From an uncultured Bacilli bacterium (GTDB lineage Bacteria; Bacillota_I; Bacilli_A; RF39; UBA660), in NCBI GenBank assembly GCA_934098515.1, contig CAKOOK010000004.1, positions 3,483 through 67,482 of the forward strand: a stretch of DNA of 64,000 bases, written 5' to 3'. The position numbers and the translations under genes are program-made. Under the pieces are notes generated by a model, which did not search any database, was not told the DNA's origin, and saw only the letters and a program-made list of their open reading frames with translations. Shown in pieces: positions 3,634 to 62,054 of this stretch; positions within the stretch are counted from its first letter, which is position 1, and each line of letters begins with the position of its first letter.

Positions 3634-4560
3634 TTAAAAGTCATATGTTTCGTATAGTTCATTATCTATATAATATATGACTTTTTTATGTTCGTAATTA
3701 TTTTTTATAGACAGGTTTATTGTGTATATTACTTTTTCAATTAGATTAGATTCATAAAGGTCATTAAAGAGTTTTTTGTTCATATTTAATGAGATAAAAT
3801 CATTTTCCATTTCATAACTTATTTCTCTTACATCTTTTAAATAACTAATTAGGCTTGTTTCGTAAACGCTTTTACTAGCAAGCTCAGATAAGATGATTTC
3901 TACTTTATCACTTTTATCATTATTTATTAAAGTTACTGGTACATAGTAATAGTAATCTTTATATTTAGATAGATAATAAATAGTTGTTTTTGTAGTACCG
4001 ATAATATCTGTAATATTGTATATTTGATTAATTCCATAGCTTTTATCTATTATTTGAGGTATTTTTTCATTTGAATTGGGTAGTCTATCAAGAAGATTAC
4101 CTTCTACATAAATGGTTATTTTATTAATTCCATCAATGCTTGTATAAGTGTATACTAAGGAACTTATTAATTTTTTTTCATCTTCTTCATTAATAGTTAA
4201 AAGTTTTTTAGAAAAGTTAAGGGTTAATAAGCCATCATCTATTTTAAAGTAGAGGAGTTTAGTACCTTTAGGAATTACAGGTTTAAATCCGTCTGATAGA
4301 TAATCTTTCTTGTTAGAGCCATCTGTTAAATATTCAGTTATTTCTTTGATTTGATTATCTATATTAGTGTTTTTAGTTACTACAGAAACTCTTGATAATA
4401 AATTATTTTGATCTATTAAATAAACGATACTAAAATCAGTATTTTCATTTTGAATATAAGTTTTATCCTCTTTCTTCGTTGGAAATAAATAGACGATTAA
4501 TAAAATAATTAAACTAGATAATATTAAAAAAGTTCTTTTCTTAACCATTTTAATTAGCAT
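3634..4560 (-). CDS. gerM: GerM-like protein (two Germane-type domains), N-terminal membrane anchor
   Basis: Pattern ...VIPKGTKLLYFKIDDGLLTLNFSKKLL... repeated in the C-terminal half. Start chosen at MLIKMVKK, behind the gaggtgg RBS. Confidence 0.6.
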   Translation of the reverse strand: MLIKMVKKRTFLILSSLIILLIVYLFPTKKEDKTYIQNENTDFSIVYLIDQNNLLSRVSVVTKNTNIDNQIKEITEYLTDGSNKKDYLSDGFKPVIPKGTKLLYFKIDDGLLTLNFSKKLLTINEEDEKKLISSLVYTYTSIDGINKITIYVEGNLLDRLPNSNEKIPQIIDKSYGINQIYNITDIIGTTKTTIYYLSKYKDYYYYVPVTLINNDKSDKVEIILSELASKSVYETSLISYLKDVREISYEMENDFISLNMNKKLFNDLYESNLIEKVIYTINLSIKNNYEHKKVIYYIDNELYETYDF

Positions 4561-4587
4561 AATCCACCTCATTTAAATATATTCTTA

Positions 4588-6366: not shown

Positions 6367-8370
6367 TTGAAAAATATAGTTGTAAGACAAGAGGATGAGG
6401 CTGACTGTGGAGCGTGCTGTTTATTATCTGTAATTAAGCATTATAATGGGTTTATTCCACTGGAATATGTTAAGGTTGATACACTTACTACAAAAGAAGG
6501 TACTACCTTTTATAATTTGAAAGTAGCTGCTGAAAAGTATGGATTTGAAGTTAGCGGGAAGAAAGAATATGATCTTAGTAAGATTAAACTACCTGCTATT
6601 GCTCAAATTAAAATTAATAATTTTTATCATTTTGTAGTAATTGTTAAAATAGACAAAGACACCATTATACTTATGGATCCTGCCATAGGTAAAAATAAGT
6701 TAAAACTATCTAAATTTAGTGAAATGTTTACAGGATATATTTTAGAATTATTCCCAATATCTAACATTGTAAATATAAAAGTGCAATCACTGTTTTTAAA
6801 ATTATTAAAAAATGTAATCCTTCAAAATAAATGTTTATTTATAAAAATATTTGTTTTAACTTTGGTAATATGTTTATTGCTTATAGTAAGTACACTTTTA
6901 GTTAATAGTATATTTTCGCTTTCATCGTTTAATTTAATAATTTTAATAATACTTATTTTAAGTAAAATAGTTATTAATTATTTAAAAAATGTTTATGTCT
7001 TTAAATTAAATAAAAGTTTAAATGAAAGTTTGTCTACTGATTATATTAGAAAAATATTTTTCTTACCCTTTAAATATTTGTGTTTAAGAAAGGAAGGAGA
7101 TTTAGTAAGCAGATTTGATGATATAAATGTCATTAAGGAAAACATATCGGTAACAATAGTAGAGTCTTTAGTAAACTTTCTAATTATTTTAAGTACATCT
7201 ATTATGCTATATATTTTAAATAAAAGAATATTTATGATAGTAATTATAATAACACTATTTGTATTATTAATAGTTTATTTTCATAATAAAAAGATATATC
7301 AAGATTTAGAAAGAACTATAGATAGTAATACTTCATTAACTGATACAGTAATAAGTTTTATATCTAATATATGGACGGTTAAAATAATTACTGATATAAA
7401 ATATTGTTTTAATAAGATAAAAGATATCATTATTGATAATAGTAATCAAAATTATTCTTTAAATAAAAAAATCGCATTAAATGAATTATTTATTAGTTCT
7501 TATACAGAGTTAGTTTTGATATTAATTATTGTTTTTAATGTTTATTTAAAATTAAATATGGGATCTTTATTATCATTTATTTTTATTAATAATTATTTTA
7601 TATCTGGTGTTAGTTACTTTTGTACTATGATGCCAAATATTATGTTTTTTAAAAGTGCTTACATGAGAATTAATAGTATTTATTATTTAGAAGATGAAAA
7701 TTATAAAGGTGAGTCTTTTATAAATGGCAATATATTAATTAAAAATTTAACGTATAGTATAGGACTTAATAATGTATTTAATAATTTTTCTTTAAATATA
7801 AATATGGGAGATAATATTTTAATTAAAGGGTCTAATGGGAGTGGAAAGTCATCTTTATTAAATATGTTTTATGGAATAATAGATGATTATGAAGGCTCTA
7901 TAAGTGTAGGTGGTATACCTATAAAAGATTTTAGTTTAAAGTCTCTTAGAAGTCATATTTCTTATGTTAATCAGAACCAGAAATTGATTCCAGGAACACT
8001 ATTGGAGAATATTATTTTAGGTGGTAAATTAGAGGAGGACAAACTTAAAATAATTGAAAAGATGCTTAATTTAGATAGAATATATCAAACTAAGTATAAT
8101 GGACTTAATTCAGTCATAAGGGATAATTTTAGTGGAGGTGAAGTTCAAAAAATTATACTTGCTAGAGCTTTATATAAAGATTTTGATATTCTCCTTTTAG
8201 ATGAAGCATTATCTCAAATAGATATTTCTGAAAGACGAAAGATTCTTCAAAATATTTGCGAGTATTATAAGACGAAAACTATTATAATGGTAAGTCATAA
8301 TAAAGAATATTATAAGTTTGATAAAATTATTTTCTTAAACAATAGAAAGGAGAAGGTTTATGTTAAGTAA
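6367..8370 (+). CDS. bacteriocin-processing ABC exporter with N-terminal C39 peptidase domain (SunT/LagD/ComA type)
   Basis: C39 catalytic context QEDEADCGACCL, YHFVVI, MDPA; six-TM domain; Walker A GSNGSGKSS; signature FSGGEVQK; Walker B ILLLDEA. TTG start. Confidence 0.9.
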   Translation: MKNIVVRQEDEADCGACCLLSVIKHYNGFIPLEYVKVDTLTTKEGTTFYNLKVAAEKYGFEVSGKKEYDLSKIKLPAIAQIKINNFYHFVVIVKIDKDTIILMDPAIGKNKLKLSKFSEMFTGYILELFPISNIVNIKVQSLFLKLLKNVILQNKCLFIKIFVLTLVICLLLIVSTLLVNSIFSLSSFNLIILIILILSKIVINYLKNVYVFKLNKSLNESLSTDYIRKIFFLPFKYLCLRKEGDLVSRFDDINVIKENISVTIVESLVNFLIILSTSIMLYILNKRIFMIVIIITLFVLLIVYFHNKKIYQDLERTIDSNTSLTDTVISFISNIWTVKIITDIKYCFNKIKDIIIDNSNQNYSLNKKIALNELFISSYTELVLILIIVFNVYLKLNMGSLLSFIFINNYFISGVSYFCTMMPNIMFFKSAYMRINSIYYLEDENYKGESFINGNILIKNLTYSIGLNNVFNNFSLNINMGDNILIKGSNGSGKSSLLNMFYGIIDDYEGSISVGGIPIKDFSLKSLRSHISYVNQNQKLIPGTLLENIILGGKLEEDKLKIIEKMLNLDRIYQTKYNGLNSVIRDNFSGGEVQKIILARALYKDFDILLLDEALSQIDISERRKILQNICEYYKTKTIIMVSHNKEYYKFDKIIFLNNRKEKVYVK

Positions 8371-14474: not shown

Positions 14475-15065
14475 ATGAAAATTGAAAATTCAAATTTAAA
14501 TGTTATTGCGGTTAGAACTAGTCAGTATCCTGATGATGGGAAGAAGGAGTTTTTACTTGTTGGTCGTAGTAATGTAGGCAAAAGTAGTTTTATAAATACT
14601 TTATTAGGTAGAAAGAATTATGCTAAAACTAGTAGTACACCTGGTAAGACACAGACACTAAACTTTTATATATGTAATGATGAGTTTTATTTAGTTGATG
14701 TGCCTGGTTATGGTTATGCACAAAGAGATAAAGTTACGCAGAAAAAGTTTGGCTTAATGATTGAGGAGTATCTTAAAACAAGAGAGAATCTAGTACGTGT
14801 GTTTATGCTTGTCGATAGTCGTATGAAACCTACTGAAAATGATATTTTGATGTATAATTATTTAAAATATTTTAATATTAAGACAACTATTGTTGCTACT
14901 AAGTATGATAAGTTAAAGGCTAAAGAGCGTGATAAGAATATTAAGAATGTAGCAAGTACTCTTAATTTAGTTGAGGATGATAAAGTAGTAGCGTTTTCTT
15001 CAGTTACTAAGAAGGGTAGAGATGAAGTTTTAAGTATTATTAATGAGGCACTAAATGAAGAATAA
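14475..15065 (+). CDS. engB: ribosome biogenesis GTPase YsxC/EngB
   Basis: G1 GRSNVGKSS, G3 DVPGYG, G4 TKYDK. Start at ATG 14475 behind aaggag. Confidence 0.9.
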   Translation: MKIENSNLNVIAVRTSQYPDDGKKEFLLVGRSNVGKSSFINTLLGRKNYAKTSSTPGKTQTLNFYICNDEFYLVDVPGYGYAQRDKVTQKKFGLMIEEYLKTRENLVRVFMLVDSRMKPTENDILMYNYLKYFNIKTTIVATKYDKLKAKERDKNIKNVASTLNLVEDDKVVAFSSVTKKGRDEVLSIINEALNEE

Positions 15066-15492
15066 AAGAGGTTTTACCCTAGTGGAGTTATTAGCAGTAA
15101 TAGTAGTTCTTAGTTTGGTTATGATTATTGCAATACCAGCTATTTCTAAAAATACTAGAAGTGCTAGAGAAGCGGTTTTAAAAACTAAAGTTGATTTGAT
15201 TATAAATGAGTCTGTAATTTGGGCAGAAGATAATTTAAATTATTTTTTAACTTCTAATAAAGGACCACTTAAGTCTTGTACTGAGGGAAGTACAATTACT
15301 TGTGAGATAACATTTAATGATCTAGCTGCAGCTGGTTATATAAAATATGATAATGAAGAGGAAAAACTTATTACGGATTCTACTAAGAAAAAGGATAGTT
15401 TAAATGATGAGATTATACTTCTTACTTATGACAAGAGTACAAGAAAAGTAAGTAGTAGTCTTAAAGATTCGTCACTTATTTCTGATAATTAA
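15055..15492 (+). CDS. type IV pilin/pseudopilin-like protein with prepilin N-terminal cleavage/methylation motif
   Basis: MKNKRG|FTLVELLAVIVVLSLV class III signal. The ATG overlaps the engB 3' end by 11 nt. Confidence 0.8.
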   Translation: MKNKRGFTLVELLAVIVVLSLVMIIAIPAISKNTRSAREAVLKTKVDLIINESVIWAEDNLNYFLTSNKGPLKSCTEGSTITCEITFNDLAAAGYIKYDNEEEKLITDSTKKKDSLNDEIILLTYDKSTRKVSSSLKDSSLISDN

Positions 15493-21099: not shown

Positions 21100-21127
21100 G
21101 TTAGGATTAAATTCCTAGCTTTTTTTG

Positions 21128-21181: not shown

Positions 21182-22726
21182 ATGGATAAACAATTAAAAA
21201 AAATATATTTATATATAGGAATATTTGTTGCAATAATCTTTATTGGAGCAACATATGCATTCTTTACTGCCGGAATGAGTTCTGAAACAAGCACCACAGT
21301 AAGAGCAGATGCCGGAACAATGAAAATAACTTATGATGGAGGAAAAGATATAAATCTAGCTGGAATATATCCTAAAGATGATGTATGGGCTACAAAAACT
21401 ATAACTGTAACTGGTAATAATACAACTGATGCACAGATGTATTATAAGTTAACTTTAATAGTAGACTCAAATACATTTAAAACAGATGATCCATTACAAT
21501 ATGAATTAGTAAGTACTAATACAAGTACTAATGGAGAAATAATCCCAAATATATCTAAAAAAGATATAACTGGAACATCTATTGAACTAGGTAGTGGACA
21601 CTTTGTAAAAGCAAATAATGCAAGTCATACATATCTATTAAAGATATATTATCCTAAAAAGGCAACTAGTCAAAATGCAAATCAAGGAGCAGCATTTAGT
21701 GCTCATGTAGAGATAACAAGTGCTAAAGCACCTAAAACTAATGGGAAATTATCAGAATTAGTATTATATAATAATGAAGTTAAAGCTCCAATTACAACAC
21801 CAGGAGCAGCAATATCTACTGCTGATGAAGCACTTTTAGCAAGTGCAGAAGATGATTATGGAACTTCTTATTATTTTAGAGGCGCTGTAACAAATAACTA
21901 TGTAGAATTTGCTAATAAATGCTGGAGAATAGTTAGAGTTGGAGGAGATGGCTCTGTAAAACTTATCTTACACAATGATAATACTGCAGGAGCTGCTAAT
22001 CCTTGTGATGCTGCAAATAATAGTACTAGTGCAGCATTTGCTAGATACAATGGAACAACATATATAAGTGCATTTAATACAAATTATAATGATAATGCAT
22101 ATGTTGGATTTAAGTATGGCACTGCTGGAGCTAGTGATTATGCAACTACTCATGCTAACATAAATAATAGTACAATACTAACTAATTTAGAAACTTGGTA
22201 TGATAATAATCTAAAAATATATGAAAGCGTAATAGATGATAATGTATGGTGTAATGATAAAACAAATGTAACAGATACAACACATGATCCTTGGGGTTGG
22301 TCACCAAATGGTTTGGGTTATGCTAAGAATCTAACTTATTATGGTGCTACACAAAGATTAGTAAGTGCAGGTGCTAGTGCTGGTGGCACGGGTCCAAGTT
22401 TAAAATGTAATGGAGAATTAAGTAAAATAAATTCAAAAATAGGATTAATAACTGCTGATGAATTAGCATATGCAGGATATGCTTATAGTCAAGTTAATAC
22501 TACAACATATTTACAAGAAAATGCTACAGATACTTATTGGTGGTCTTTGTCTCCTATCGGCTTCTATGGCAGCCGTGCTCGCGTTTGGCTCGTTGTCGGC
22601 AGCCTTGGCCGCTTCGATCGCAGCGACGTGGTTGGCACTGACGCGGTTCGTCCTTCGATTTCTCTTAAGTCGACGACCAACGTAACCGGTGAAGGAACCA
22701 GTGATAAACCTTTTGTTGTAGATTAA
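21182..22726 (+). CDS. secreted/surface protein paralog 1 with C-terminal hypervariable lectin-like module (candidate DGR target)
   Basis: ATG 21182 behind the aggaga RBS. N-terminal signal/anchor IGIFVAIIFIGATYAFFTAG...SSETS resembles TasA/camelysin-type signals. The C-terminal ~315 aa is paralogous to 38562..39854 and ends ...YWWSLSP-[31 variable aa]-RPSISLKSTTNVTG. Confidence 0.8.
   Translation: MDKQLKKIYLYIGIFVAIIFIGATYAFFTAGMSSETSTTVRADAGTMKITYDGGKDINLAGIYPKDDVWATKTITVTGNNTTDAQMYYKLTLIVDSNTFKTDDPLQYELVSTNTSTNGEIIPNISKKDITGTSIELGSGHFVKANNASHTYLLKIYYPKKATSQNANQGAAFSAHVEITSAKAPKTNGKLSELVLYNNEVKAPITTPGAAISTADEALLASAEDDYGTSYYFRGAVTNNYVEFANKCWRIVRVGGDGSVKLILHNDNTAGAANPCDAANNSTSAAFARYNGTTYISAFNTNYNDNAYVGFKYGTAGASDYATTHANINNSTILTNLETWYDNNLKIYESVIDDNVWCNDKTNVTDTTHDPWGWSPNGLGYAKNLTYYGATQRLVSAGASAGGTGPSLKCNGELSKINSKIGLITADELAYAGYAYSQVNTTTYLQENATDTYWWSLSPIGFYGSRARVWLVVGSLGRFDRSDVVGTDAVRPSISLKSTTNVTGEGTSDKPFVVD
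22556..22648 (+). other. hypervariable, GC-rich, A-depleted 93-nt core (VR-like) of paralog 1
   Basis: Hand count: 59/93 G+C and 9 A. 41/93 mismatches to 39684..39776, then 42 identical nt (22649..22690). Confidence 0.75.
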
Positions 22727-22745
22727 TTTATTTAGTAGGAGTGTT

Positions 22746-23969
22746 ATGAATATTATTGATATAATTACTAAGAAGAAGAACAAGCAAGTGTTAAATTATG
22801 AAGAACTGAAATATGCTTTTGATGGGTTTTTAAATAATAAAATTAAAGATTATCAAATGAGTGCTTTGCTTATGGCAATAACTATTAATGGGATGACTTA
22901 TGAAGAGACTTTGGATCTGACTGATATTTTTATTAAGAGTGGTGAGGTTTATACGTTTGATAAGCCGGTATGTGATAAGCATAGTACTGGGGGAATTGGT
23001 GATACTGTTACTTTAATAATTGCTCCTATTGTAGCTGCTTTAAATGTGCCAATGGCTAAGATGAGTGGTAGAGGTTTAGGCATTACTGGCGGTACTATAG
23101 ATAAGTTAGAAAGTATTCCTGGATTTAATGTTAATTTGACTAAGGATGAGTTTTATAAGGGAGTTAAGGAGATAGGCTTAGCCGTTAGTTCTCAGACTAA
23201 AAGTTTAGTTCCACTAGATAAGGTTATATATTCTTTAAGGGATGTTACTGGTACTACGGAAAGTATTCCTCTTATTGCTTCGTCTATTATGAGTAAGAAG
23301 ATTGCTTCTGGAGCTACATATATTGTAATTGATATTAAGTGTGGTGAAGGTGCTCTTATTAAGAGTGAAAAGGACGCTGAGGAATTATCCTTGTATTTGA
23401 CTAAGATAGGTGAGCATTTTGGAAGAAATGTTAAAACACTTATTACTGATATGGATGAGCCTTTATCTAGTGCGGTTGGTAATGCTTTAGAGGTTTTAGA
23501 GGCTAAAGAAGTGCTTGAAACTAATAAGCTATGTAGGCTTAGAGAGGTGTCTTTAGAGGTATCTGCTAATATTATAAGTATGGCTAAGAATATTAAGGTG
23601 AGTGAAGCTAAGATATTGTGTGCTAAGGTTTTAGAAAATAAGACTGCGTATAAGATGTTTGAGAAGTGGATTAGCTACCAACATGGTGATTTGAGTAAAG
23701 TTAAAGTAAGTGATAAGATTATTAAACTTAAAAGTAATAAAGATGGTGTTATAACTAAAATAAGTGCTTTAAAGGTTGGTAAGCTTGCTGGATTACTTGG
23801 AGCTAGTCGTAAGACTAAAGAGGATAATATTGATTATAGTGTTGGGGTTAAGTTGTTATGTGAGGCTGGAGATAGTGTTATAAAGGGACAGGATTTAGCT
23901 TTATTATATGTTAATGATTTGAATGTTAAATTAGATGAAGAAGATTTAAAAATATTTGAAATAAAATAG
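22746..23969 (+). CDS. pdp: pyrimidine-nucleoside phosphorylase
   Basis: DKHSTGGIGD, SGRGLGITGGTIDKLES, typical length of ~407 aa. Confidence 0.9.
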   Translation: MNIIDIITKKKNKQVLNYEELKYAFDGFLNNKIKDYQMSALLMAITINGMTYEETLDLTDIFIKSGEVYTFDKPVCDKHSTGGIGDTVTLIIAPIVAALNVPMAKMSGRGLGITGGTIDKLESIPGFNVNLTKDEFYKGVKEIGLAVSSQTKSLVPLDKVIYSLRDVTGTTESIPLIASSIMSKKIASGATYIVIDIKCGEGALIKSEKDAEELSLYLTKIGEHFGRNVKTLITDMDEPLSSAVGNALEVLEAKEVLETNKLCRLREVSLEVSANIISMAKNIKVSEAKILCAKVLENKTAYKMFEKWISYQHGDLSKVKVSDKIIKLKSNKDGVITKISALKVGKLAGLLGASRKTKEDNIDYSVGVKLLCEAGDSVIKGQDLALLYVNDLNVKLDEEDLKIFEIK

Positions 23970-24033
23970 ATAATCTTCTTTTTTTTGTGAGTTACATGTG
24001 ATATACTAATTGTATATGATAGGGGAGGCTAGT

Positions 24034-24345
24034 ATGAGTAAGAAAGGGCAAGCACTTATTGAGTTTATTTTGATTATGCCGGTTATGGTTTATCTTATAT
24101 TGGTGTTTGTGGATTTTTCTTTGATACTAAGTACTAAGAATAAGTTAGAGAATAATGTTAGTAATTTAGTTATGGAGTATAAGGAAACGGGCTTATGCCC
24201 TGAAGGGGCTTTGTGTGAATCTAGTGATAAGTATGAAAAGATTGCTCTTAGAGAGAAATATGTTCCTAAAACTCCTGGTCTAAGTTTAATCCTTAAAGAA
24301 CCTTATTATATTAAAAGTGAAAGAGTGGTTTTAAAGGATGAATAA
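24034..24345 (+). CDS. TadE-like pseudopilin/pilus assembly protein
   Basis: N-terminus KKGQALIEFILIMPVMVYLIL (G/xxxxEF-type TadE motif). First gene of the Tad-like operon; extended -10 tgatatact upstream. Confidence 0.6.
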   Translation: MSKKGQALIEFILIMPVMVYLILVFVDFSLILSTKNKLENNVSNLVMEYKETGLCPEGALCESSDKYEKIALREKYVPKTPGLSLILKEPYYIKSERVVLKDE

Positions 24346-24661
24346 AAAAGCTCAGGCACTTGCACTTTTTATTACGATAATTCCAGTTATATTCATTGTT
24401 ATTATCTTTGTTTATGAGTCTGGTGTATTTGTAAATGAGAAAAATCGTGTTCTAGGTGTTCTTGATAGTACAGTTGAAGAAGCTAAGAGATATGATTTAA
24501 GTGATGATGAGATAATAGATTTATTAAATAAAAATAGTATTCGTAAAGAAGATATAGAGATAGTTAATCATGAAGGGATAAAGACAATTATTATTAAAGT
24601 TAAATATCCGGTAATAAATAAAACTTATGAGATAAAAACAAAGATGAAGGAGGCAGAATAA
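24338..24661 (+). CDS. small membrane-anchored protein of Tad-like operon (TadE/TadF-like, tentative)
   Basis: N-terminal hydrophobic segment KKAQALALFITIIPVIFIVIIFV; overlapping start. Confidence 0.4.
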   Translation: MNKKAQALALFITIIPVIFIVIIFVYESGVFVNEKNRVLGVLDSTVEEAKRYDLSDDEIIDLLNKNSIRKEDIEIVNHEGIKTIIIKVKYPVINKTYEIKTKMKEAE

Positions 24662-25404
24662 TGGCTAGAGGAACAAGTATAGCGGTCTTTGGTGCTAAGG
24701 GTGGAACTGGTAAGACTATTTTTGCACTTAATTTGGCTGGTGCTATGTCTAAGCTTGATAAGAAATGTTTGATTATTGATGCTGATCTTTATTCAGGACA
24801 AATAGATTGTGCTCTTAATAAGAAACCAAAAAAAGATATATATAATTTTGCAGATGATTATAGTAATAATCGTTATAAAGATTTTGAAGATTATGTTACG
24901 GTTTATAATAAAAATATTTCTTTTATTGGGGCTCCTACTGATCCTAGAAGAGCTAATAAGATTGATCCTAAGTATTTAAGTATAATTTTAGATAAGGCTC
25001 TTTTTAAGTATGATTTTGTTATATTTGATATGTCACATATATTAAATGAGGTTAATGTTAATATTTTGGATATGGTTGATAAGATTTTACTTGTTACGAC
25101 TAATGATCCACTAGATTTAAAGAATTTAAAGACAGTTCTAAGTTTATTTAAGGATAGTAGTATAAATAAGTATAAGGTTATTTTAAATGATTCAGTGGCA
25201 AATAATCGTGATTATTTTTCTTTATATGATTTAAAGGTGATTATTGATAATAATATTGATTATATTATAAGTAATAAGTTTTATGTACCTAATATGGATG
25301 CTTATGTGTTTGATGGGAAGATTTTTACTCTTGAGGCTAGAAAGTATCCTGATGAGGATGTGTTTAATTTGATTATTAAGGATGCAGGTGGTAAAGATGA
25401 GTAA
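24661..25404 (+). CDS. CpaE/TadZ-like ParA/MinD-family ATPase
   Basis: Deviant Walker A FGAKGGTGKT; position upstream of the CpaF-like ATPase. Confidence 0.75.
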   Translation: MARGTSIAVFGAKGGTGKTIFALNLAGAMSKLDKKCLIIDADLYSGQIDCALNKKPKKDIYNFADDYSNNRYKDFEDYVTVYNKNISFIGAPTDPRRANKIDPKYLSIILDKALFKYDFVIFDMSHILNEVNVNILDMVDKILLVTTNDPLDLKNLKTVLSLFKDSSINKYKVILNDSVANNRDYFSLYDLKVIIDNNIDYIISNKFYVPNMDAYVFDGKIFTLEARKYPDEDVFNLIIKDAGGKDE

Positions 25405-26716
25405 AAGCTTAACTGAGAATTTTGATTTTAAGCCAATATATAATGCTGAGGATAGTATAGTTAGTGATTATGAGGTATTTAAAGATAAGAAGTTACTTGA
25501 TAATCTTAGAAAGATAATTATTGAGGATTTGATTGATAAGGAGATACCTACTAATAAGGAGTTAAGTGAGTTTGTTAATGAGGAGATTGATAGGTGTTTA
25601 GAGGGATATGATTTAACTAATTTGGAGAGAAATCATATATTTAATTTGATTGAATCAGAGATAAATGGTTATGGACCGATTACTGAGCTTTTAAATGATC
25701 CTAATGTTACAGAGATTATGGTTAATGGACCTAGTGAGGTTTATGTAGAGATTGATGGTAAGTTAGTTAAGGATACTAGTGTTTCTTTTATTAATGATAA
25801 TCACATAGAGCGTACTATTCAAAGGCTTATTCAGCCTCTAGGAAGAACTATTGATAGTTCTAATCCTATGGTAGATTCTAGGCTTAAGGATGGGTCAAGA
25901 ATTAATGCGGTATTGCCTCCTTTAAGTGTAAATGGGCCGGTTATTACTATACGTAAGTTTAAGCATAATATGACTAAGGTAGAGGATTTGCTTAGAGTTG
26001 GTACTATGACTACTGATATGGCTAAATTTTTAGAGGCGTGTGTTAGAGGAAAACTTAATATTATTGTTTGTGGTGGAACTGGTTCTGGTAAGACGACTCT
26101 TTTAAATATTATAAGTGGTTTTATTGGAAATGATGAACGTATTATTACAATAGAGGATGCTGCTGAGTTAAAGTTAGAACAGGAACATGTTATATCGCTT
26201 GAAACAAGAACTGCTAATTATAATAAGGGGAGTGTTGTTACTGTTAGAGATTTGGTTATTAATGCTCTTCGTATGAGGCCAGATAGAATAATTGTTGGAG
26301 AATGTCGTGGTAAAGAGGCTTTTGATATGTTACAAGCAATGAATACTGGACATGATGGATCACTTACTACGTTACATGCTAATAGTCCAGAAGATGCTTT
26401 AAATAGATTAGAGACTTTAGTGCTTATGAGTGGTATTGATATTCCAATTAAAGCAGTTAGGGAATATATTGAAAATGCAATAAATATTGTTGTAAATATT
26501 CAAAGAATGCATGATGGTAAAAGAAAAATAACTTCTATATGTGAAGTTGATGGGTTTGATAAAGATATGATTAAACTTATTCCTATATTTGAGTTTGTTC
26601 AAATGGGACTTACAGATACTGGTGAGGAAAGAGGAGAGTTTACTTGTAAGAATAAAAAACCTAATGTTGCTAAATTACTTAAATCAAGGGGAATTAAATT
26701 AGATATGCTTAAATAG
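25397..26716 (+). CDS. tadA: CpaF/TadA-type secretion ATPase (type II/IV secretion NTPase family)
   Basis: Walker [10 protein letters not shown], Asp box ITIEDAAEL, Walker [13 protein letters not shown], His box [13 protein letters not shown]. Confidence 0.9.
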
Positions 26717-26730
26717 AAAGGAGTACTTTT

Positions 26731-27729
26731 ATGGATAAGATATTAAAACTTGCTATATTTATAAGTGCGATTATTTTACTTTTAGTAATTGCTATTTATG
26801 AAATTTTAAAGATTAGAAGAACGATTAAAATAGCTAATAGAATAGATAAGTTTACTCTTAAGGTTCCAGGTAATAGTGAACCAACTATTGGCGATGATTT
26901 TAATAAAAGTGTTAATGCTTTAATTAGTAAGATGAGTAGTATTTTATCTAGAAGTGCATACTTTACTAAAAGAGCATGTAAATATGATAAGTATGTTACG
27001 ATAAAGAAGAATTCTAATTATAAGTTTGATGTTTATAGTATTAAGATTTTAATTAGTATTTTGGTTTTTATAATATATACTTTAACTTCTGTTTTAAATA
27101 GAACTTTTGAGTTACCACTTGGATTAGTTTTTTTGGTACTGGGATATTTTGTTACAGATATTTATTTGGAGATTTTAAATCAAATTAGAATAAAGAATAT
27201 TGAAGGTGATTTGCTTAAAGCAATTATTATTATGAATAATGCTTTTAAGTCAGGGTTAAATATTACTAATGCGATTGATGTTGTTATAAATGATTTAGAT
27301 GGTCCAGTAAAGGATGAGTTTATGCTTATTAAGAAAGATTTATCTAGTGGTATAGATACATCTGAGGCTTTTAATCGTTTTTATAGGAGAGTAAGGTTAG
27401 AAGATGCTCAGTATATATCTAGTAGTTTAAGTATTTTAAATGTTACTGGAGGTAATATTACATTTATTTTTTCAAATATTGAGGAGGCTTTAACTAATAA
27501 GAAGAGGCTTAAGGATGAACTTAAAGCGATGACAGCATCTAGTATGGTTGTTTATCGAATTCTTACTTTTATGCCATTTATATTAATTTTTATTATTTTA
27601 ATGCTTAACAAGGATTATTTTAATCCATTATTTAATAATGTATTAGGTATATTTGCAATTGTTTTGGTTCTTGTTCTTTATACAATATATATCTTTGTTA
27701 TTAGAAAGATTCTTAAGGTGGAGTTATGA
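26731..27729 (+). CDS. tadB: TadB-like (type II secretion system F family) membrane protein
   Basis: T2SSF-like domain with flanking TM segments; operon position. Confidence 0.7.
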   Translation: MDKILKLAIFISAIILLLVIAIYEILKIRRTIKIANRIDKFTLKVPGNSEPTIGDDFNKSVNALISKMSSILSRSAYFTKRACKYDKYVTIKKNSNYKFDVYSIKILISILVFIIYTLTSVLNRTFELPLGLVFLVLGYFVTDIYLEILNQIRIKNIEGDLLKAIIIMNNAFKSGLNITNAIDVVINDLDGPVKDEFMLIKKDLSSGIDTSEAFNRFYRRVRLEDAQYISSSLSILNVTGGNITFIFSNIEEALTNKKRLKDELKAMTASSMVVYRILTFMPFILIFIILMLNKDYFNPLFNNVLGIFAIVLVLVLYTIYIFVIRKILKVEL

Positions 27730-28427
27730 GAAGTGTTACATTAAAATTATTTAGTAATAAAACTATTTCAAGGTTTAAGAAGAAAAGTATGGCTTTAGGA
27801 ATTAAGAATAAGAGTTCTTATGTAAGTGATTTAAGTTTATATCTTTTGATAATTATTATTGCTTTTGTTGTTAGTATCATGTTTTGTTATCATAGGTTTT
27901 ATCTTATAATATTATTACCAATTGGAGCAGCTTTGCTATTTGAGTTTTTGTATTATGATGTAAGACTTGCTAAGAGAAGAGCACTTCTAAATAAGCAGGC
28001 GTTATTCTTTTTTCAAATTTTAAGTTTGACTTTGGAGTCTGGTAATAATTTAAAGGGTGCTATTGAGCTTACTACGTCAAGTATATCTAATGATTTATCT
28101 GATGAATTTAAGAAAGCACTTAGTGATATGAGGATGGGTAGTACAATGAATGAAGCATTACTAGATTTAGAGAAAAGAATTCCTAGTGAGGTAATTACTA
28201 ATATTATATTAAATTTAACTGAGTCTAATGTTTATGGTAGTGATATGATTAAGAGTCTTAATACTCAGATAGATTATTTAAATAATAAACTTGTATTAAG
28301 TGTTAGGGAACAAATTAATAAGATGCCAATTAAGATAAGTGTAGTTAGTGTTCTATTATTTATTCCAATAATTTTACTTATTATTTTATCGCCACTTATT
28401 ATAGAGTTAATTGGATTGTCAAATTAA
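27726..28427 (+). CDS. tadC: TadC-like (type II secretion system F family) membrane protein
   Basis: T2SSF-like domain with TM segments at both ends; overlapping start with the tadB-like gene. Confidence 0.65.
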   Translation: MRSVTLKLFSNKTISRFKKKSMALGIKNKSSYVSDLSLYLLIIIIAFVVSIMFCYHRFYLIILLPIGAALLFEFLYYDVRLAKRRALLNKQALFFFQILSLTLESGNNLKGAIELTTSSISNDLSDEFKKALSDMRMGSTMNEALLDLEKRIPSEVITNIILNLTESNVYGSDMIKSLNTQIDYLNNKLVLSVREQINKMPIKISVVSVLLFIPIILLIILSPLIIELIGLSN

Positions 28428-38561: not shown

Positions 38562-39854
38562 ATGAACAAAAAACTTCCGATAATTTCTCTTTTTTTTATG
38601 AGTATAGTTAGCATAATGTATTGGGCATTTAAACCAAAGGACGAATTATATGAGGCTAAATGGAATGCGCCAGACACAACTTTAGCAATTACGATCAATG
38701 GTGAAATTAGTACAACATTTCCAACAACAGATATGTACACTGGAACAGTAGAATGTACTACAGGAACAGGTAAAGTAGAATGGAATGGTACTAAATGGAT
38801 TCTTACAACAAGTGGAATAACTAAAGGAAGCACTAAATGCAATGTTATTTTTAAGCAAACTTTTAATGGTGTAATATTAGCAAAGAATGAAGTAAAGACT
38901 CCGTTTACAACACCAGGAGCAGCAGTATCTACTGCAAGTGAAGCATTACTTGCAGCTGCAGAAGATGATTATGGTACATCTTATTACTTTAGAGGTGCTG
39001 TAACAAATAACTATGTAGAGTTTGCTAATAAATGCTGGAGAATAGTAAGAGTTAGTGGAGATGGTTCAGTAAAACTTATCTTACATAATGACAATACAAC
39101 TGGAGTTGCTAATCCTTGTGATGCTGCAAATAATAGTGCTAGTGCAGCATTTGCAAGATACTCTGGTGAAACATATACAAGTGCATTTAACACAATTGTA
39201 AATGATAATGCTTATGTAGGATTTAAGTATGGAACACCAGGTTCAAATACATATGAAGCTACACATGCAAATACCAATAAAAGTACAATACTAACTAATT
39301 TAGAAGTTTGGTATAATAAGAATCTTAAAACATATGAAAAAGTAATAGCTGATACTGTATGGTGTAATGATAAAACAAATGTGACTGATACATCTTTTGA
39401 CCCATGGAATTATAGTAGTTATAGTAATGTAACTGGTTTAGGATATGCTAAAAATATAACATATTATGGTGCTACCCAAAGACTAGTAAGTAAAAGTAAT
39501 AGTGCTGGAGGCACTGGCCCAAGTTTGAAATGTAATGGAGAATTAAGTAAAATAAATTCAAAGGTAGGCTTAATAACAGCAGATGAACTAGCATTAGCAG
39601 GATATGCTTATGATTATTTTGAAAATACTACACCATATTTACAAGAAAATGCTACAGATGATTATTGGTGGTCCTTGTCGCCTGACAACTTCTTTGGTGG
39701 CTACGCTTACGTTTGGTGCGTTGGCATCAGATATGGCGTCTTCAGAGTCGAATACGTGAACCACGCCTACGGGCTTCGTCCTTCGATTTCTCTTAAGTCG
39801 ACGACCAACGTAACCGGTGATGGAACCAGTGAAAATCCATACGTAGTAAAATAG
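38562..39854 (+). CDS. secreted/surface protein paralog 2 with C-terminal hypervariable lectin-like module (candidate DGR target)
   Basis: N-terminal signal/anchor LPIISLFFMSIVSIMYWAF. From ~aa 110 it is paralogous to 21182..22726 and ends ...YWWSLSP-[31 variable aa]-RPSISLKSTTNVTG. Confidence 0.8.
   Translation: MNKKLPIISLFFMSIVSIMYWAFKPKDELYEAKWNAPDTTLAITINGEISTTFPTTDMYTGTVECTTGTGKVEWNGTKWILTTSGITKGSTKCNVIFKQTFNGVILAKNEVKTPFTTPGAAVSTASEALLAAAEDDYGTSYYFRGAVTNNYVEFANKCWRIVRVSGDGSVKLILHNDNTTGVANPCDAANNSASAAFARYSGETYTSAFNTIVNDNAYVGFKYGTPGSNTYEATHANTNKSTILTNLEVWYNKNLKTYEKVIADTVWCNDKTNVTDTSFDPWNYSSYSNVTGLGYAKNITYYGATQRLVSKSNSAGGTGPSLKCNGELSKINSKVGLITADELALAGYAYDYFENTTPYLQENATDDYWWSLSPDNFFGGYAYVWCVGIRYGVFRVEYVNHAYGLRPSISLKSTTNVTGDGTSENPYVVK
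39684..39776 (+). other. hypervariable 93-nt core (VR-like) of paralog 2
   Basis: Hand count: 48/93 G+C and 18 A. Rich in NAC codons (gac aac tac tac ... aac cac tac). Followed by a 42-nt block identical to paralog 1 (39777..39818). Confidence 0.75.
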
Positions 39855-60921: not shown

Positions 60922-62054
60922 GAATATTAGTCAATGATGTGAAACAAAAAAATATAAAATAACTTAGTAAATAACTGAGTTGTTTTTTTATAATTGTAAT
61001 AATTTATTTCTCATTTCTATTGGTGATAAAAAATTTAAAACCTGCATAGGAATATTATTTGATCTTTTTAAATACAATTTTCCTTGATATCTTAAATCTT
61101 CTAATGAGTAAAATGATAAAAAAGAATAAAATCGTTCATTATCATTTCTGTGGCTTCTTTCGACTTTGCCATTATGTCTAGGTGTGCGAGGTCTAATTTT
61201 ATGATGATAAATGTTGTTAGCCAAACAATACTTGTCCATTGGATGAATAACTTTAACTTTTTCTTGATTATAAGTGAATTCTATACCATTATCAGTCTGA
61301 ATTTCTTCTGGTTTATATTTGTAATAATCAATACATTTTTTTATAAAGTCAACTGTGCTTTCTGGTGTGTGTTCAGTATACCAATATAAAAACCTTTCAC
61401 GTGATGCCTCGTCGATGCATGTATATTGATAAAATCTTATATCGTCAGGTAAATTATTAGTTTTACATTCGTTAGGAACGTATTTAACATCTATTTGCCA
61501 TTTTATTCCAAGCTGTTTTGGAGTTTCATAATGTTTTATTTGTTTTTTTGAAGTACCACTAATTAATACTTGATTATAAAATCCGATTCTTCTTAATAGT
61601 CTATACAAACTAACAATATGTCTTGTATATCCTTTATTTCTTTTTAATTTAATCCATAATTCACATAAGGTTATATGAGGATTCCTTTTTATAAAAGCTT
61701 TTATCCATTTTACTTCTTCATCAGTATGAGCATTTGGATGTTTCGATTTTGGCCTATGAGAACCATCCATTAATGATTCTGGTGTACCATTATATTTTTT
61801 ATTCCACCTCCATAAAGAAGTTCTTGAAATATGATATTTTCTACATACATATTCAATTGAATTTCCGTTTCTATATGTTTCTACAGCATGAAGTCTTGTT
61901 TTTAATTCATGGGGTAGATATCTCACATTATTTTGTGTTATACTTGTCATGACTTAAGTCCTTTCTTATATTTATTGATTTTGGTTCAACTCAATTATAT
62001 AAGACTTAAGTCATTTTTTATATAATAATGTTTCACATCTATTGTATTACAACA
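60922..62054 (-). mobile_element. IS481-like insertion sequence (~1.1 kb, single DDE transposase); exact ends uncertain by ~10-15 nt
   Basis: Imperfect terminal IRs tcaatgatgtgaaaca (60931..60946) and tgtttcacatctattg (62028..62044). Possible 5-bp TSD tatta (60925..60929 / 62045..62049). A 26-bp direct repeat lies outside the element on both sides. Confidence 0.75.
60988..61950 (-). CDS. DDE (rve/integrase-core) transposase with N-terminal HTH, IS481-family-like
   Basis: HTH YVCRKYHISRTSLWRWNKKY. DDE triad context WQIDVKY, IQTDNGIEF, HNGKVERSHRN. Confidence 0.85.
   Translation of the reverse strand: MTSITQNNVRYLPHELKTRLHAVETYRNGNSIEYVCRKYHISRTSLWRWNKKYNGTPESLMDGSHRPKSKHPNAHTDEEVKWIKAFIKRNPHITLCELWIKLKRNKGYTRHIVSLYRLLRRIGFYNQVLISGTSKKQIKHYETPKQLGIKWQIDVKYVPNECKTNNLPDDIRFYQYTCIDEASRERFLYWYTEHTPESTVDFIKKCIDYYKYKPEEIQTDNGIEFTYNQEKVKVIHPMDKYCLANNIYHHKIRPRTPRHNGKVERSHRNDNERFYSFLSFYSLEDLRYQGKLYLKRSNNIPMQVLNFLSPIEMRNKLLQL

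Follow-up and report, generated by a model that had tools for sequence, protein, structure and literature searches.

DGR-type variable regions at the C-terminal ends of two DUF6273-like surface-protein paralogs in an uncultured gut Bacilli bacterium, with the retroelement outside the analysed window

In the 64,000-nucleotide stretch analysed here (the window), we found two paralogous genes with variable 3' ends; these genes and their features described below lie on the forward strand. Paralog 1 (21182..22726) is a surface protein of the type targeted by diversity-generating retroelements (DGRs), as assigned from the ORF list, its translation and gene calls elsewhere. Its reading frame is open from a TTG at 21125, and metagenome gene calls begin at an ATG at about 21182. 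The protein has a transmembrane/signal anchor at its N-terminus, an N-terminal module that is variable, and a module of about 320 aa at its C-terminus. Paralog 2 (38562..39854, 430 aa) has the C-terminal module in common with paralog 1 and carries a different N-terminal module. A preliminary reading made from the letters alone (the sequence-only reading) had estimated 85-90% identity between the paralogs upstream of the variable cores; the mild divergence holds, at a measured 83-86%. The genes flanking the paralogs are housekeeping genes (rplS/pdp and xseAB), and the paralogs are cellular, membrane-anchored proteins. The host lineage is common in Hadza and other human-gut metagenomes, and database labels call it "Tenericutes" or "Bacilli".

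The C-terminal module of paralog 1 (21746..22723, 326 aa) is DUF6273-like and carries the variable region at its extreme C-terminus. The window proteins themselves gave no Pfam match; homologs about 84% identical in DNA match DUF6273 (PF19789) above the cutoff, over profile positions 78-172 of 172, and 15 of 65 family members match this Pfam entry. The AlphaFold2 model of the module, built from a 65-sequence alignment, reached a pLDDT of 97.5 (an earlier prediction from a shallow 29-sequence alignment, with pLDDT 31.6, was discarded), and a Foldseek search with it returned DUF6273 proteins of phages at E = 8e-7 and a prob of 1.0. By way of the homologs and the model, the variable region is thus placed at the C-terminal end of a DUF6273-type domain. 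The label "lectin-like" proposed for this module is retained in the sense of DUF6273-like only; a direct structural match to the C-type lectin (CLec) fold was not significant. Paralog 1 has at least 6569 homologs, and the family of the C-terminal module comprises 4938 cluster representatives at 50% identity.

Variable region 1 (VR1, 22538..22655) is a 118-nt segment running from TGGTGGTC to CGTCCTT, defined by gapless alignment to the template repeats (TRs) of relatives and of a co-occurring cassette, and VR2 (39666..39783) is the TR-homologous segment of paralog 2. The hypervariable core of VR1 (22556..22648; 93 nt, 31 codons) and that of VR2 (39684..39776) differ at 41 of 93 nt with no indels on a recount of the window sequence. 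The mismatches are distributed over codon positions 1, 2 and 3 as 18, 16 and 7, so that positions 1 and 2 take 34. The 52 unchanged bases comprise 17 C, 16 T, 16 G and 3 A, and every codon invariant between VR1 and VR2 is free of A. G+C is 63.4% (59/93) in the VR1 core and 51.6% in the VR2 core, compared with 31-33% in the remainder of both genes and 28.3% in the window. These measurements reproduce the hand counts of the sequence-only reading, including the A-free invariant codons. The identical tail after both cores is also real, and it is 44 nt long (22649-22692 = 39777-39820) rather than 42; no third copy exists in the window with up to 3 mismatches allowed.

The pattern is well beyond chance. 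Using a TR that was recovered later from the co-occurring cassette and assigned to the same species by co-occurrence and coverage, we found that 30 of the 41 mismatches between VR1 and VR2 sit on its 35 adenine positions (Fisher p = 2e-10). The TR core has 46% G+C and 35 A in 93 nt; random substitution of those adenines predicts about 65% G+C, which explains the G+C jump in the VRs. The TR core predicted by hand from the two paralogs is identical to the real one at 76 of 93 positions and wrong at the rest. Among 98 homologs, which encode 54 distinct VR peptides, the columns that vary are those with AAC codons in the TR.

At the 3' boundary, the homology shared by VR and TR stops at CGTCCTT, which is followed by CGATTTCTCTTAAG in the VR and by ATTTTCTCTTAAAT in the TR. 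The segments after it (CGATTTCTCTTAAGTCGACG in the VR, ATTTTCTCTTAAATTTAAAA in the TR) are alike yet distinct, as for an IMH in the VR and an IMH* in the TR, and this arrangement is conserved across the VRs and TRs examined. The IMH-like element with its conserved 3' segment occupies 22656..22692 in VR1, starting at the point where VR and TR diverge, and 39784..39820 in VR2, with the same sequence. The earlier suggestion that the invariant tail marks the VR 3' boundary or an IMH-like element is therefore borne out by the VR-TR comparison at CGTCCTT. A small inverted repeat, TCGATTT-CTCTTAAGTCGA, lies at 22655-22673 and includes the T preceding the IMH-like segment. A hairpin at the IMH was predicted in all four VRs folded, with an energy not better than that of shuffled sequences (z = -0.1 to -1.5), and we mention a DNA hairpin there as a possibility. 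VR1 and VR2 are variable regions of DGR type, each at the C-terminal end of a module of the ligand-binding type.

Related uncultured gut Bacilli possess complete cassettes, in which a target gene with its VR is accompanied by an AAC-rich TR of 118 nt, by genes for a MutS_I-like and an Avd-like protein, and by a reverse transcriptase (RT). Each of six loci (L021, L023, L030, L031, L035 and L050) carries such a cassette. A contig scan by the pattern of invariant positions returned relatives with full cassettes and not the VRs of the window itself, which means that the species is not readable in that contig collection. The cognate VRs of the relatives depart from their own TR only at adenines, at 16-24 of them; the range is 16-21 for the six loci taken together with another relative, UMGS1021. 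UMGS1021 has one TR and six VRs on four contigs, and two of its remote VRs (L019 and L022) also show 0 non-adenine mismatches. The RT matches RVT_1 (Pfam), and nine lineages keep an uninterrupted RT frame of 356 codons. Between TR and RT, a 120-aa protein matching Pfam MutS_I (E = 1e-6) sits together with the Avd-like gene. The 117-aa product of the latter aligns over its full length with Pfam bAvd (E = 0.003; 18 bits, below the cutoff of 40) and with NCBIfam DivGenRetAVD (E = 6e-6; 26.5 bits, below the cutoff of 80). The TR region matched nothing in Rfam. The scan of viral contigs for the TR returned 0 matches and so provides no evidence for a phage-borne element. Natural RT knock-outs were also observed, by an IS insertion in same-species strains and by a premature stop in a relative.

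The sequence-only reading had expected a TR beside an RT gene, with or without an Avd-like gene. This arrangement exists in the relatives and on co-occurring contigs, and not in the window, where neither TR, Avd nor RT was detected by a 44-mer search with up to 3 mismatches, by direct repeats or by blastn-short of a relative's TR region. Searching the window by tblastn with MSL (MutS-like), Avd, RT and Mbeg1 found nothing, and the same search over 35 loci of the species and its near relatives, reaching to about 10 kb past each window end, recovered 0 of the 4 cassette proteins. Walking beyond the right end of the window gave no cassette, and walking beyond the left end led to another paralog, whose variable region we call VR0, with no TR or RT; the 89-kb scaffolds break at this paralog. 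When all window proteins were compared by tblastn with the cassette loci in search of shared synteny, the one match was a distant AAA_14 paralog. VR1 and VR2 are real DGR-written variable regions, and the retroelement is outside the window.

A cassette with an intact RT (IGNMTSQ, YMDD) was found on separate contigs, L070-L079, on which the TR is followed by RT P0127 (365 aa); a TR near a DGR-type RT ([ILV]GxxxSQ, YxDD), absent from the window, is thus present there. The P0127 contigs derive from 10 samples, of which 5 also contain the window species. SPAdes coverage of the cassette and of the window species was 3.9 versus 3.4-3.7 in one Hadza sample and 3.5 versus 3.5-4.1 in another. In the shared samples, the five cassette contigs are 99.8-99.99% identical to one another, and of the six window-species contigs compared, five show 99.96-100% identity with the window and one, L012, shows 99.4%. 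L012 continues into VR1 and pdp, and over its first 265 nt it matches L074's TR-adjacent target gene at 100% identity. From co-occurrence, coverage and strain-level correlation, rather than from a physical join, we infer that the cassette belongs to the same genome as the window. This cassette, next to polC and outside the window, is most likely the source of the template and enzymes of this species, and its order there would be target gene with VR, TR, MutS_I-like (120 aa), Avd-like (117 aa), RT (365 aa) and Mbeg1-like. Four further RT lineages (P0024, P0026, P0121 and P0139) were set aside as other strains, species or contexts, sharing 0 samples with the window species.

The VR adjacent to this TR is still being rewritten. 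Over 8.2 kb, L074 and L070 share 99.26% identity; of the 61 differences between them, about 25 lie inside the TR-adjacent VR. Three alleles occur in five assemblies, each with 0 non-adenine mismatches, and between strains about 99% identical the changes fall at TR adenines only, which indicates that the cassette is active there. A comparison of L031 with L035 as a same-strain, different-VR control was dropped in favour of L074 and L070, because those two loci also differ elsewhere (91% identity).

The VRs of the window present a different picture. Measured against the co-occurring TR, VR1 has changes at 26 of 35 adenines and at 8 of 82 other sites, and VR2 at 21 of 35 and 14 of 82; against the TRs of relatives, the adenine bias is significant for both (Fisher p ~1e-12 for VR1 and ~1e-7 for VR2). 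In both VRs the substitutions are focused on template adenines. The sequence-only reading had required adenines at the mismatch positions of any TR found, and most changes comply; the 8 and 14 non-adenine mismatches do not. Over eight TR variants the non-adenine mismatches never fall below 7 for VR1 and 10 for VR2, whereas cognate VRs of intact cassettes have 0, so that the window's VRs are out of register with the TR. Of the eight non-adenine changes that VR1 carries, six affect third codon positions and are synonymous.

Nor do the two VRs vary between strains. VR1 is the same in six assemblies, although in three of them (L008, L010 and L012) the sequence outside the VR is 0.5-1% diverged from the window, and VR2 and VR0 show no change in any assembly carrying those alleles; the first VR2 loci were picked by exact protein identity, a choice partly corrected through the xseB locus. 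As the sampled strains are close (>=99%), this invariance spans a limited evolutionary time. Strain heterogeneity confined to the variable sites, as foreseen by the sequence-only reading, is therefore not seen at assembly level in VR1 or in the present allele of VR2; the VR next to the TR does vary in this way. The DGR interpretation was right in kind, given the adenine bias and the cassettes in relatives, and apparently wrong as to ongoing diversification.

We consider it likely that VR1 and VR2 are stale remote VRs, which the DGR wrote at some earlier time and has since left untouched; judged from these comparisons, their diversification does not appear to be ongoing. Most likely, the species has at least two further stale paralog VRs, VR3 and VR0, the latter lying about 4.5 kb upstream of the window. 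By analogy with the family, the RT would copy the RNA of the 118-nt AAC-rich TR with misincorporation opposite adenines, and the cDNA would then replace the VR as far as the IMH boundary, where CGTCCTT meets CGATTT... The element would be a chromosomal DGR of MSL plus Avd architecture, with VRs at the C-terminal tip of the DUF6273-like binding module in two membrane-anchored paralogs. VR1 and VR2 were probably last written from an older version of the TR and then fixed, with subsequent drift being mainly synonymous C/T. Each VR has three mismatches in the G+C-rich 11 nt beside the IMH (VR form GCGGTTCGTCC, repaired form GGCGTCCGTCC), which could be a cause of the staleness.

It is unlikely that VR1 and VR2 are instead currently active remote targets whose single allele reflects selection or recent common descent. 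Their IMH-like element and 3' segment are intact and identical to those of VRs with 0 non-adenine mismatches in L022 and L023, which speaks against staleness in that both might remain targetable; adenine-only remote VRs do exist in UMGS1021, and an apparently intact cassette is found alongside the species. However, some of the 8 and 14 non-adenine mismatches lie in the last 12 nt before the IMH, where any homing would overwrite them. In addition, VR1 is constant across strains at a divergence at which the TR-adjacent VR turns over, and the 89-kb scaffolds assemble straight through VR1 and VR2.

We give little credence to a further idea, that the stale paralog VRs act as a reservoir which, by gene conversion, exchanges segments with the active target gene beside the TR. 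Three observations hint in this direction: the differences between strains in paralog 1 are patchy, one patch is 100% identical to the TR-adjacent target gene, and contig junctions repeatedly fall inside the paralogs. If true, DGR hypermutation at one "expression/writing" locus would be combined with cassette-style recombination among at least five paralogs, as in antigenic-variation systems.

Very unlikely, in our judgement, is a second TR or DGR in the same genome, different from the eight TR variants seen, which would make the non-adenine mismatches only apparent. About half of these mismatches lie at positions polymorphic among known TR variants, so a second TR could explain part of them and weaken the case for staleness. 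Several of the third-codon positions concerned (56, 98, 101, 107, 110 and 113) also vary among the TR variants, and at their 3' ends VR1 and VR2 agree more closely with the L030-type TR (GGGGTTCGTCC) than with the co-occurring one. Yet no variant among about 30 TR loci improves on the minima given above, and VR1 and VR2 conflict with each other at 11 non-adenine positions, so that no single TR can fit the two; this reading would also leave the constancy between strains unexplained. The absence of any DGR, with ordinary diversifying selection or gene conversion among paralogs, accords with the patchy differences and contig junctions within paralogs (recombination or mis-assembly among copies being frequent) and with the xseB locus, where relatives with flanks 95-97.5% identical have alleles differing across the whole C-terminal half, but it is effectively refuted by the adenine specificity, by the A-free invariant codons and by the homologous genes of relatives, bona fide DGR targets in which the adenine-only pattern is perfect.

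On the preferred reading, in which VR1 and VR2 are past products of the DGR, a VR that is still rewritten stands apart from frozen paralog VRs within one species, and together with the RT knock-outs this offers a natural comparison of what keeps a remote VR targetable. The results also indicate that an uncultured low-G+C, small-genome lineage of gut Bacilli invests heavily in DGR-diversified, membrane-anchored binding proteins of the DUF6273 type.

Among the closest known systems is the DGR of Bordetella phage BPP-1, with Mtd, TR, Avd and bRT. The system described here resembles it in the signature of adenine-specific mutagenic retrohoming from a TR to a VR that ends the target gene on its 3' side, in a TR made of AAC codons, in an IMH (VR) and IMH* (TR) that differ at the 3' boundary, and in an Avd-like gene with an RT bearing the [ILV]GxxxSQ motif. 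Unlike BPP-1, it is chromosomal, with 0 viral-contig matches, and has an extra MutS_I-like accessory gene, a DUF6273-like scaffold instead of Mtd, and many paralogous VRs, of which the two in the window are out of register with the TR. DGRs with MSL and Avd constitute "architecture D" of Wu et al. 2018, for example the Legionella DGR (PMC5758913). Our system resembles that architecture in gene content, since a small MutS_I-like protein of 120 aa and an Avd-like gene lie side by side in the interval from TR to RT, while the host, an uncultured low-G+C gut Bacilli bacterium, and the target domain are different. Multiple remote targets are known from the TvpA-type DGR of Treponema denticola (PMC5758913), and one TR and RT likewise serve several scattered VR paralogs here, as in UMGS1021 with its two adenine-only VRs. 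In the T. denticola DGR the accessory gene is HRDC and the scaffold a C-type lectin of FGE-sulfatase type, whereas ours has MSL and a DUF6273-like scaffold, and the remote VRs of the window species appear stale. DUF6273 targets of DGRs have been described in Faecalibacterium prophages and as "tentaclins" (PMC11792537, PMC10743442), with the VR at the C-terminal end of the same domain family; those are phage receptor-binding proteins, whereas the proteins described here are cellular, membrane-anchored and encoded among housekeeping neighbours. The system is of a known sort, and it adds a well-resolved further example that leaves the understanding of DGRs unchanged.

The window holds two paralogous genes, paralog 1 (21125/21182-22726), which neighbours rplS and a pyrimidine-nucleoside phosphorylase gene (pdp), and paralog 2 (38562-39854), which neighbours xseA/xseB and an AAA_14 gene. 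Both are embedded in housekeeping-gene surroundings, and a Pfam search gave no match of its own for either. They share ~81-86% identity across the C-terminal 970 nt, and their N-terminal parts differ. The cores of their variable regions (VR1, 22538-22655, core 22556-22648; VR2, 39666-39783, core 39684-39776) align without gaps at 41 mismatches in 93 nt, split 18, 16 and 7 between the first, second and third codon positions; of the 52 bases that do not vary, 17 are C, 16 T, 16 G and three A. These figures, recounted by script, reproduce exactly the mismatches, codon-position skew and adenine count of the sequence-only reading. The cores are followed by an identical tail of 44 nt (22649-22692 = 39777-39820), and a search across the window found no third copy of it. 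G+C content reaches 63% in the VR1 core and 52% in the VR2 core, compared with 31-33% in the remainder of both genes and 28% in the window, and the jump is visible in a sliding profile. A 90-aa ORF on the reverse strand (22511-22783) overlaps VR1; most likely it is not a real gene but a by-product of the locally raised G+C and the absence of stop codons.

That reading had proposed a diversity-generating retroelement (DGR), which is right in kind, given the adenine bias and the cassettes that we found in relatives. A scan of one genome per species, using only positions invariant among VR1, VR2 and a third paralog, returned relatives, and the window's own genome was not among the matches. 'Uncultured Tenericutes bacterium UMGS1021' gave seven matches over four contigs, namely one template repeat (TR; contig L015) and six VRs. 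A Hadza MAG contig (L021) gave two matches 643 nt apart. The upstream one closes a homologous gene at its 3' end; the downstream one repeats this sequence with almost every variable codon reading AAC, and after it come genes of 120 and 117 aa and a reverse transcriptase (RT). The 120-aa gene matches MutS_I (E = 1e-6; MutS_I-like, MSL), the 117-aa gene (Avd-like) has a weak bAvd/DivGenRetAVD match below the curated cutoffs, and the RT matches RVT_1. The combination of MSL and Avd is architecture D in Wu et al. 2018 (PMC5758913). In a metagenome scan, a TR-specific pattern added 12 TR loci together with a VR that has hardly diversified (L033); a viral-contig scan gave no match.

Where the cassette's RT is open, the VR next to the TR shows changes at 16-21 adenines of that TR and at none of its other bases, which is the canonical DGR signature. 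VR/TR homology spans TGGTGGTC to CGTCCTT, 118 nt; past this point the VR continues CGATTTCTCTTAAG and the TR ATTTTCTCTTAAAT, alike yet distinct, which makes an IMH/IMH* arrangement of 3' boundary elements. It falls in the first part of the identical tail, which the sequence-only reading had measured as a 42-mer and where it had suspected an IMH-like element. The TR core predicted from the window was 82% correct against the recovered TR.

Compared with seven TR variants from relatives, VR1 has 24-26 of 33-35 adenines changed and 7-13 of ~84 other sites, and VR2 has 20-22 adenines and 10-15 other sites changed, an overwhelming adenine bias (p from 1e-12 to 1e-6). The pattern is not clean: non-adenine mismatches to the cognate-lineage TR number 8 in VR1, 14 in VR2 and 11 in VR0, the VR of a further paralog of the same species. 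UMGS1021 is mixed in the same way: two remote VRs have no non-adenine mismatch and four VRs have 2-7. The TR also accounts for the G+C jump. Of the 93 nt in its core 35 are A and 46% are G+C, and random replacement of these adenines predicts ~65% G+C, with which VR1 agrees; the non-adenine positions are 64-67% G+C because the template is built of NNC codons.

TR, MSL, Avd and RT are all absent from the window, and none of the four cassette proteins was found in 35 fetched loci of the window species and near relatives. RT homologs are numerous, and one RT lineage, P0127 (365 aa, with IGNMTSQ and YMDD), occurs on ten contigs, five of them from samples also holding window-species contigs (ERZ28615459, ERZ27287061, ERZ4566944, ERZ4562320 and ERZ28615693). 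Coverage agrees in the two SPAdes-assembled Hadza samples (3.9 versus 3.4-3.7; 3.5 versus 3.5-4.1). The five shared-sample cassette contigs are pairwise 99.8-99.99% identical, and five of the six window-species contigs compared from these samples match the window at 99.96-100%. The sixth, L012 (99.4%), runs into VR1 and pdp, and its first 265 nt are 100% identical to the cassette's TR-adjacent target gene. From these lines of evidence we assign the P0127 cassette to the window species with high confidence, by a non-physical link. The expectation of a TR beside an RT holds on these co-occurring contigs and in relatives, but not within the window.

The cassette is laid out as target-VR / TR / MSL / Avd-like / RT / Mbeg1-like / AbiE / polC. 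Past the RT, L070-L077, as well as L023/L024, carry Mbeg1-like, AbiEi/AbiEii or ToxN, and a Schlafen/AlbA_2 gene, on either side of polC; the genes next to the cassette are a small defence-gene cluster. Natural knock-outs of the element also exist: in some strains of the cassette's species (L025-L028, 98.2-99.2% to L074), an ISAzo13-type DDE transposase truncates the RT at residue 79, and in a relative (L048/L049) the RT has an in-frame stop and the adjacent VR has 7 non-adenine mismatches.

Five assemblies contain three alleles of the TR-adjacent VR of the P0127 cassette, all of which depart from the TR at 18-24 adenines and nowhere else, and two cassette contigs, L074 and L070, with 99.26% identity across 8.2 kb, have ~25 of their 61 differences within the VR. 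This shows activity of the element at the VR beside its TR. VR1, by comparison, is the same in six assemblies picked via the neighbouring pdp, and is unchanged in L008, L010 and L012 though these are 0.5-1% off the window outside the VR. VR2 is the same in all assemblies with its allele, xseB-picked ones included, and VR0 in five assemblies. Six of the eight non-adenine mismatches of VR1 are synonymous third-position changes, five of these C/T transitions. Some non-adenine mismatches sit in the last 12 nt ahead of the IMH, where any homing would overwrite them, so no homing has replaced these VRs since they arose. Each VR has three mismatches to the TR in the 11 G+C-rich nt directly before the IMH (VR1 GCGGTTCGTCC, VR2 GGGCTTCGTCC, TR GGCGTCCGTCC), which may be the cause of the apparent staleness. 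The variation among strains anticipated by the sequence-only reading was not seen: VR1 and this VR2 allele are invariant in the strains sampled, and the evidence indicates that their diversification is past, not ongoing. VR3, of a third paralog (L008/L057), has a six-codon insertion.

We consider it improbable that the stale paralogs swap segments with the active locus by gene conversion. The differences between strains within paralog 1 (L007, L008, L012) form dense patches at 21295-21772 and 22143-22411, with none in the VR, and the patch of L012 matches the TR-adjacent target gene (L074:19-283) at 100% identity; either the paralogs have undergone gene conversion or these assemblies are chimeric. 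Several contigs change genomic context exactly inside a paralog, through either inter-paralog recombination or chimeric assembly: in L008 (1-8510), PS-decarboxylase leads into the 3' part of paralog 1; in L057, xseB is connected to the 3' part of paralog 3, with FNT after it; and L064 and L065 do not match each other upstream of the VR0 paralog. At the xseB-adjacent locus of relatives (L061:1422-3035 and L056:4270-5904; flanks 97.5% and 95% identical), the positional orthologue of paralog 2 carries another allele across its entire C-terminal half (84-87% identity), with the IMH region replaced or decayed; allele replacement there is therefore not due to the DGR only.

The VR0 paralog (L065:3618-5189, VR0 at L065:4998; 523 or 601 aa, weak DUF6273 match) lies ~4.5 kb upstream of window position 1 and is followed by a XerC/D-type integrase gene; 89-kb scaffolds in three assemblies stop near it, ~2.8-3.2 kb upstream of the window start. 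Paralog 1 and pdp are immediately followed by a Tad/type IV pilus-like operon (24010-28427; TadE, CbiA/ParA-type ATPase, T2SSE, two T2SSF), and a prepilin-type N_methyl gene is at 15055-15492. A reverse-strand rve-family IS transposase (60988-61950) between thrS and a ThiF-family gene is missing in the Hadza contig L045 (gap 246 nt versus ~1.4 kb), so the insertion is polymorphic. A Germane domain gene (3634-4572, reverse strand) and a SpoIIIAH gene just outside the window (L064:12909-13403) adjoin PBP, RodA and RecU genes, which marks the organism as a relative of Bacilli that has a wall and possibly sporulates, even though databases label its relatives 'Tenericutes'. Two genes upstream of a paralog, L008 encodes a 181-aa FGE-sulfatase-domain protein (6866-7411) of low G+C, in which a VR-like segment is absent; FGE-sulfatase is the other classic DGR target fold.

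The C-terminal module of the targets (~320 aa) has 4938 representatives at 50% identity, with multiple copies in some proteins, and >6500 close homologs, most of which stay singletons when clustered at 90% identity. The 98 homologs whose core has 31 codons yield 54 distinct VR peptides, which vary at the columns where the TR has AAC codons. A structure model from 65 diverse sequences (pLDDT 97.5) matches phage DUF6273 proteins (E = 8e-7), and Pfam DUF6273 is matched by 15 of the 65. Against solved structures the model gave nothing significant, the best PDB entry being the C-terminal domain of Legionella Lcl (E = 1.1), with several C-type lectin domains next (E = 2.6-6, likewise non-significant). 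DUF6273 is known as a C-type-lectin-like DGR target domain with a C-terminal VR (PMC10743442, PMC11792537). The system is a DGR of an uncultured gut Bacilli lineage with an MSL plus Avd-like architecture, DUF6273-type targets and several remote paralogous VRs, all features of which are already documented for DGRs elsewhere.
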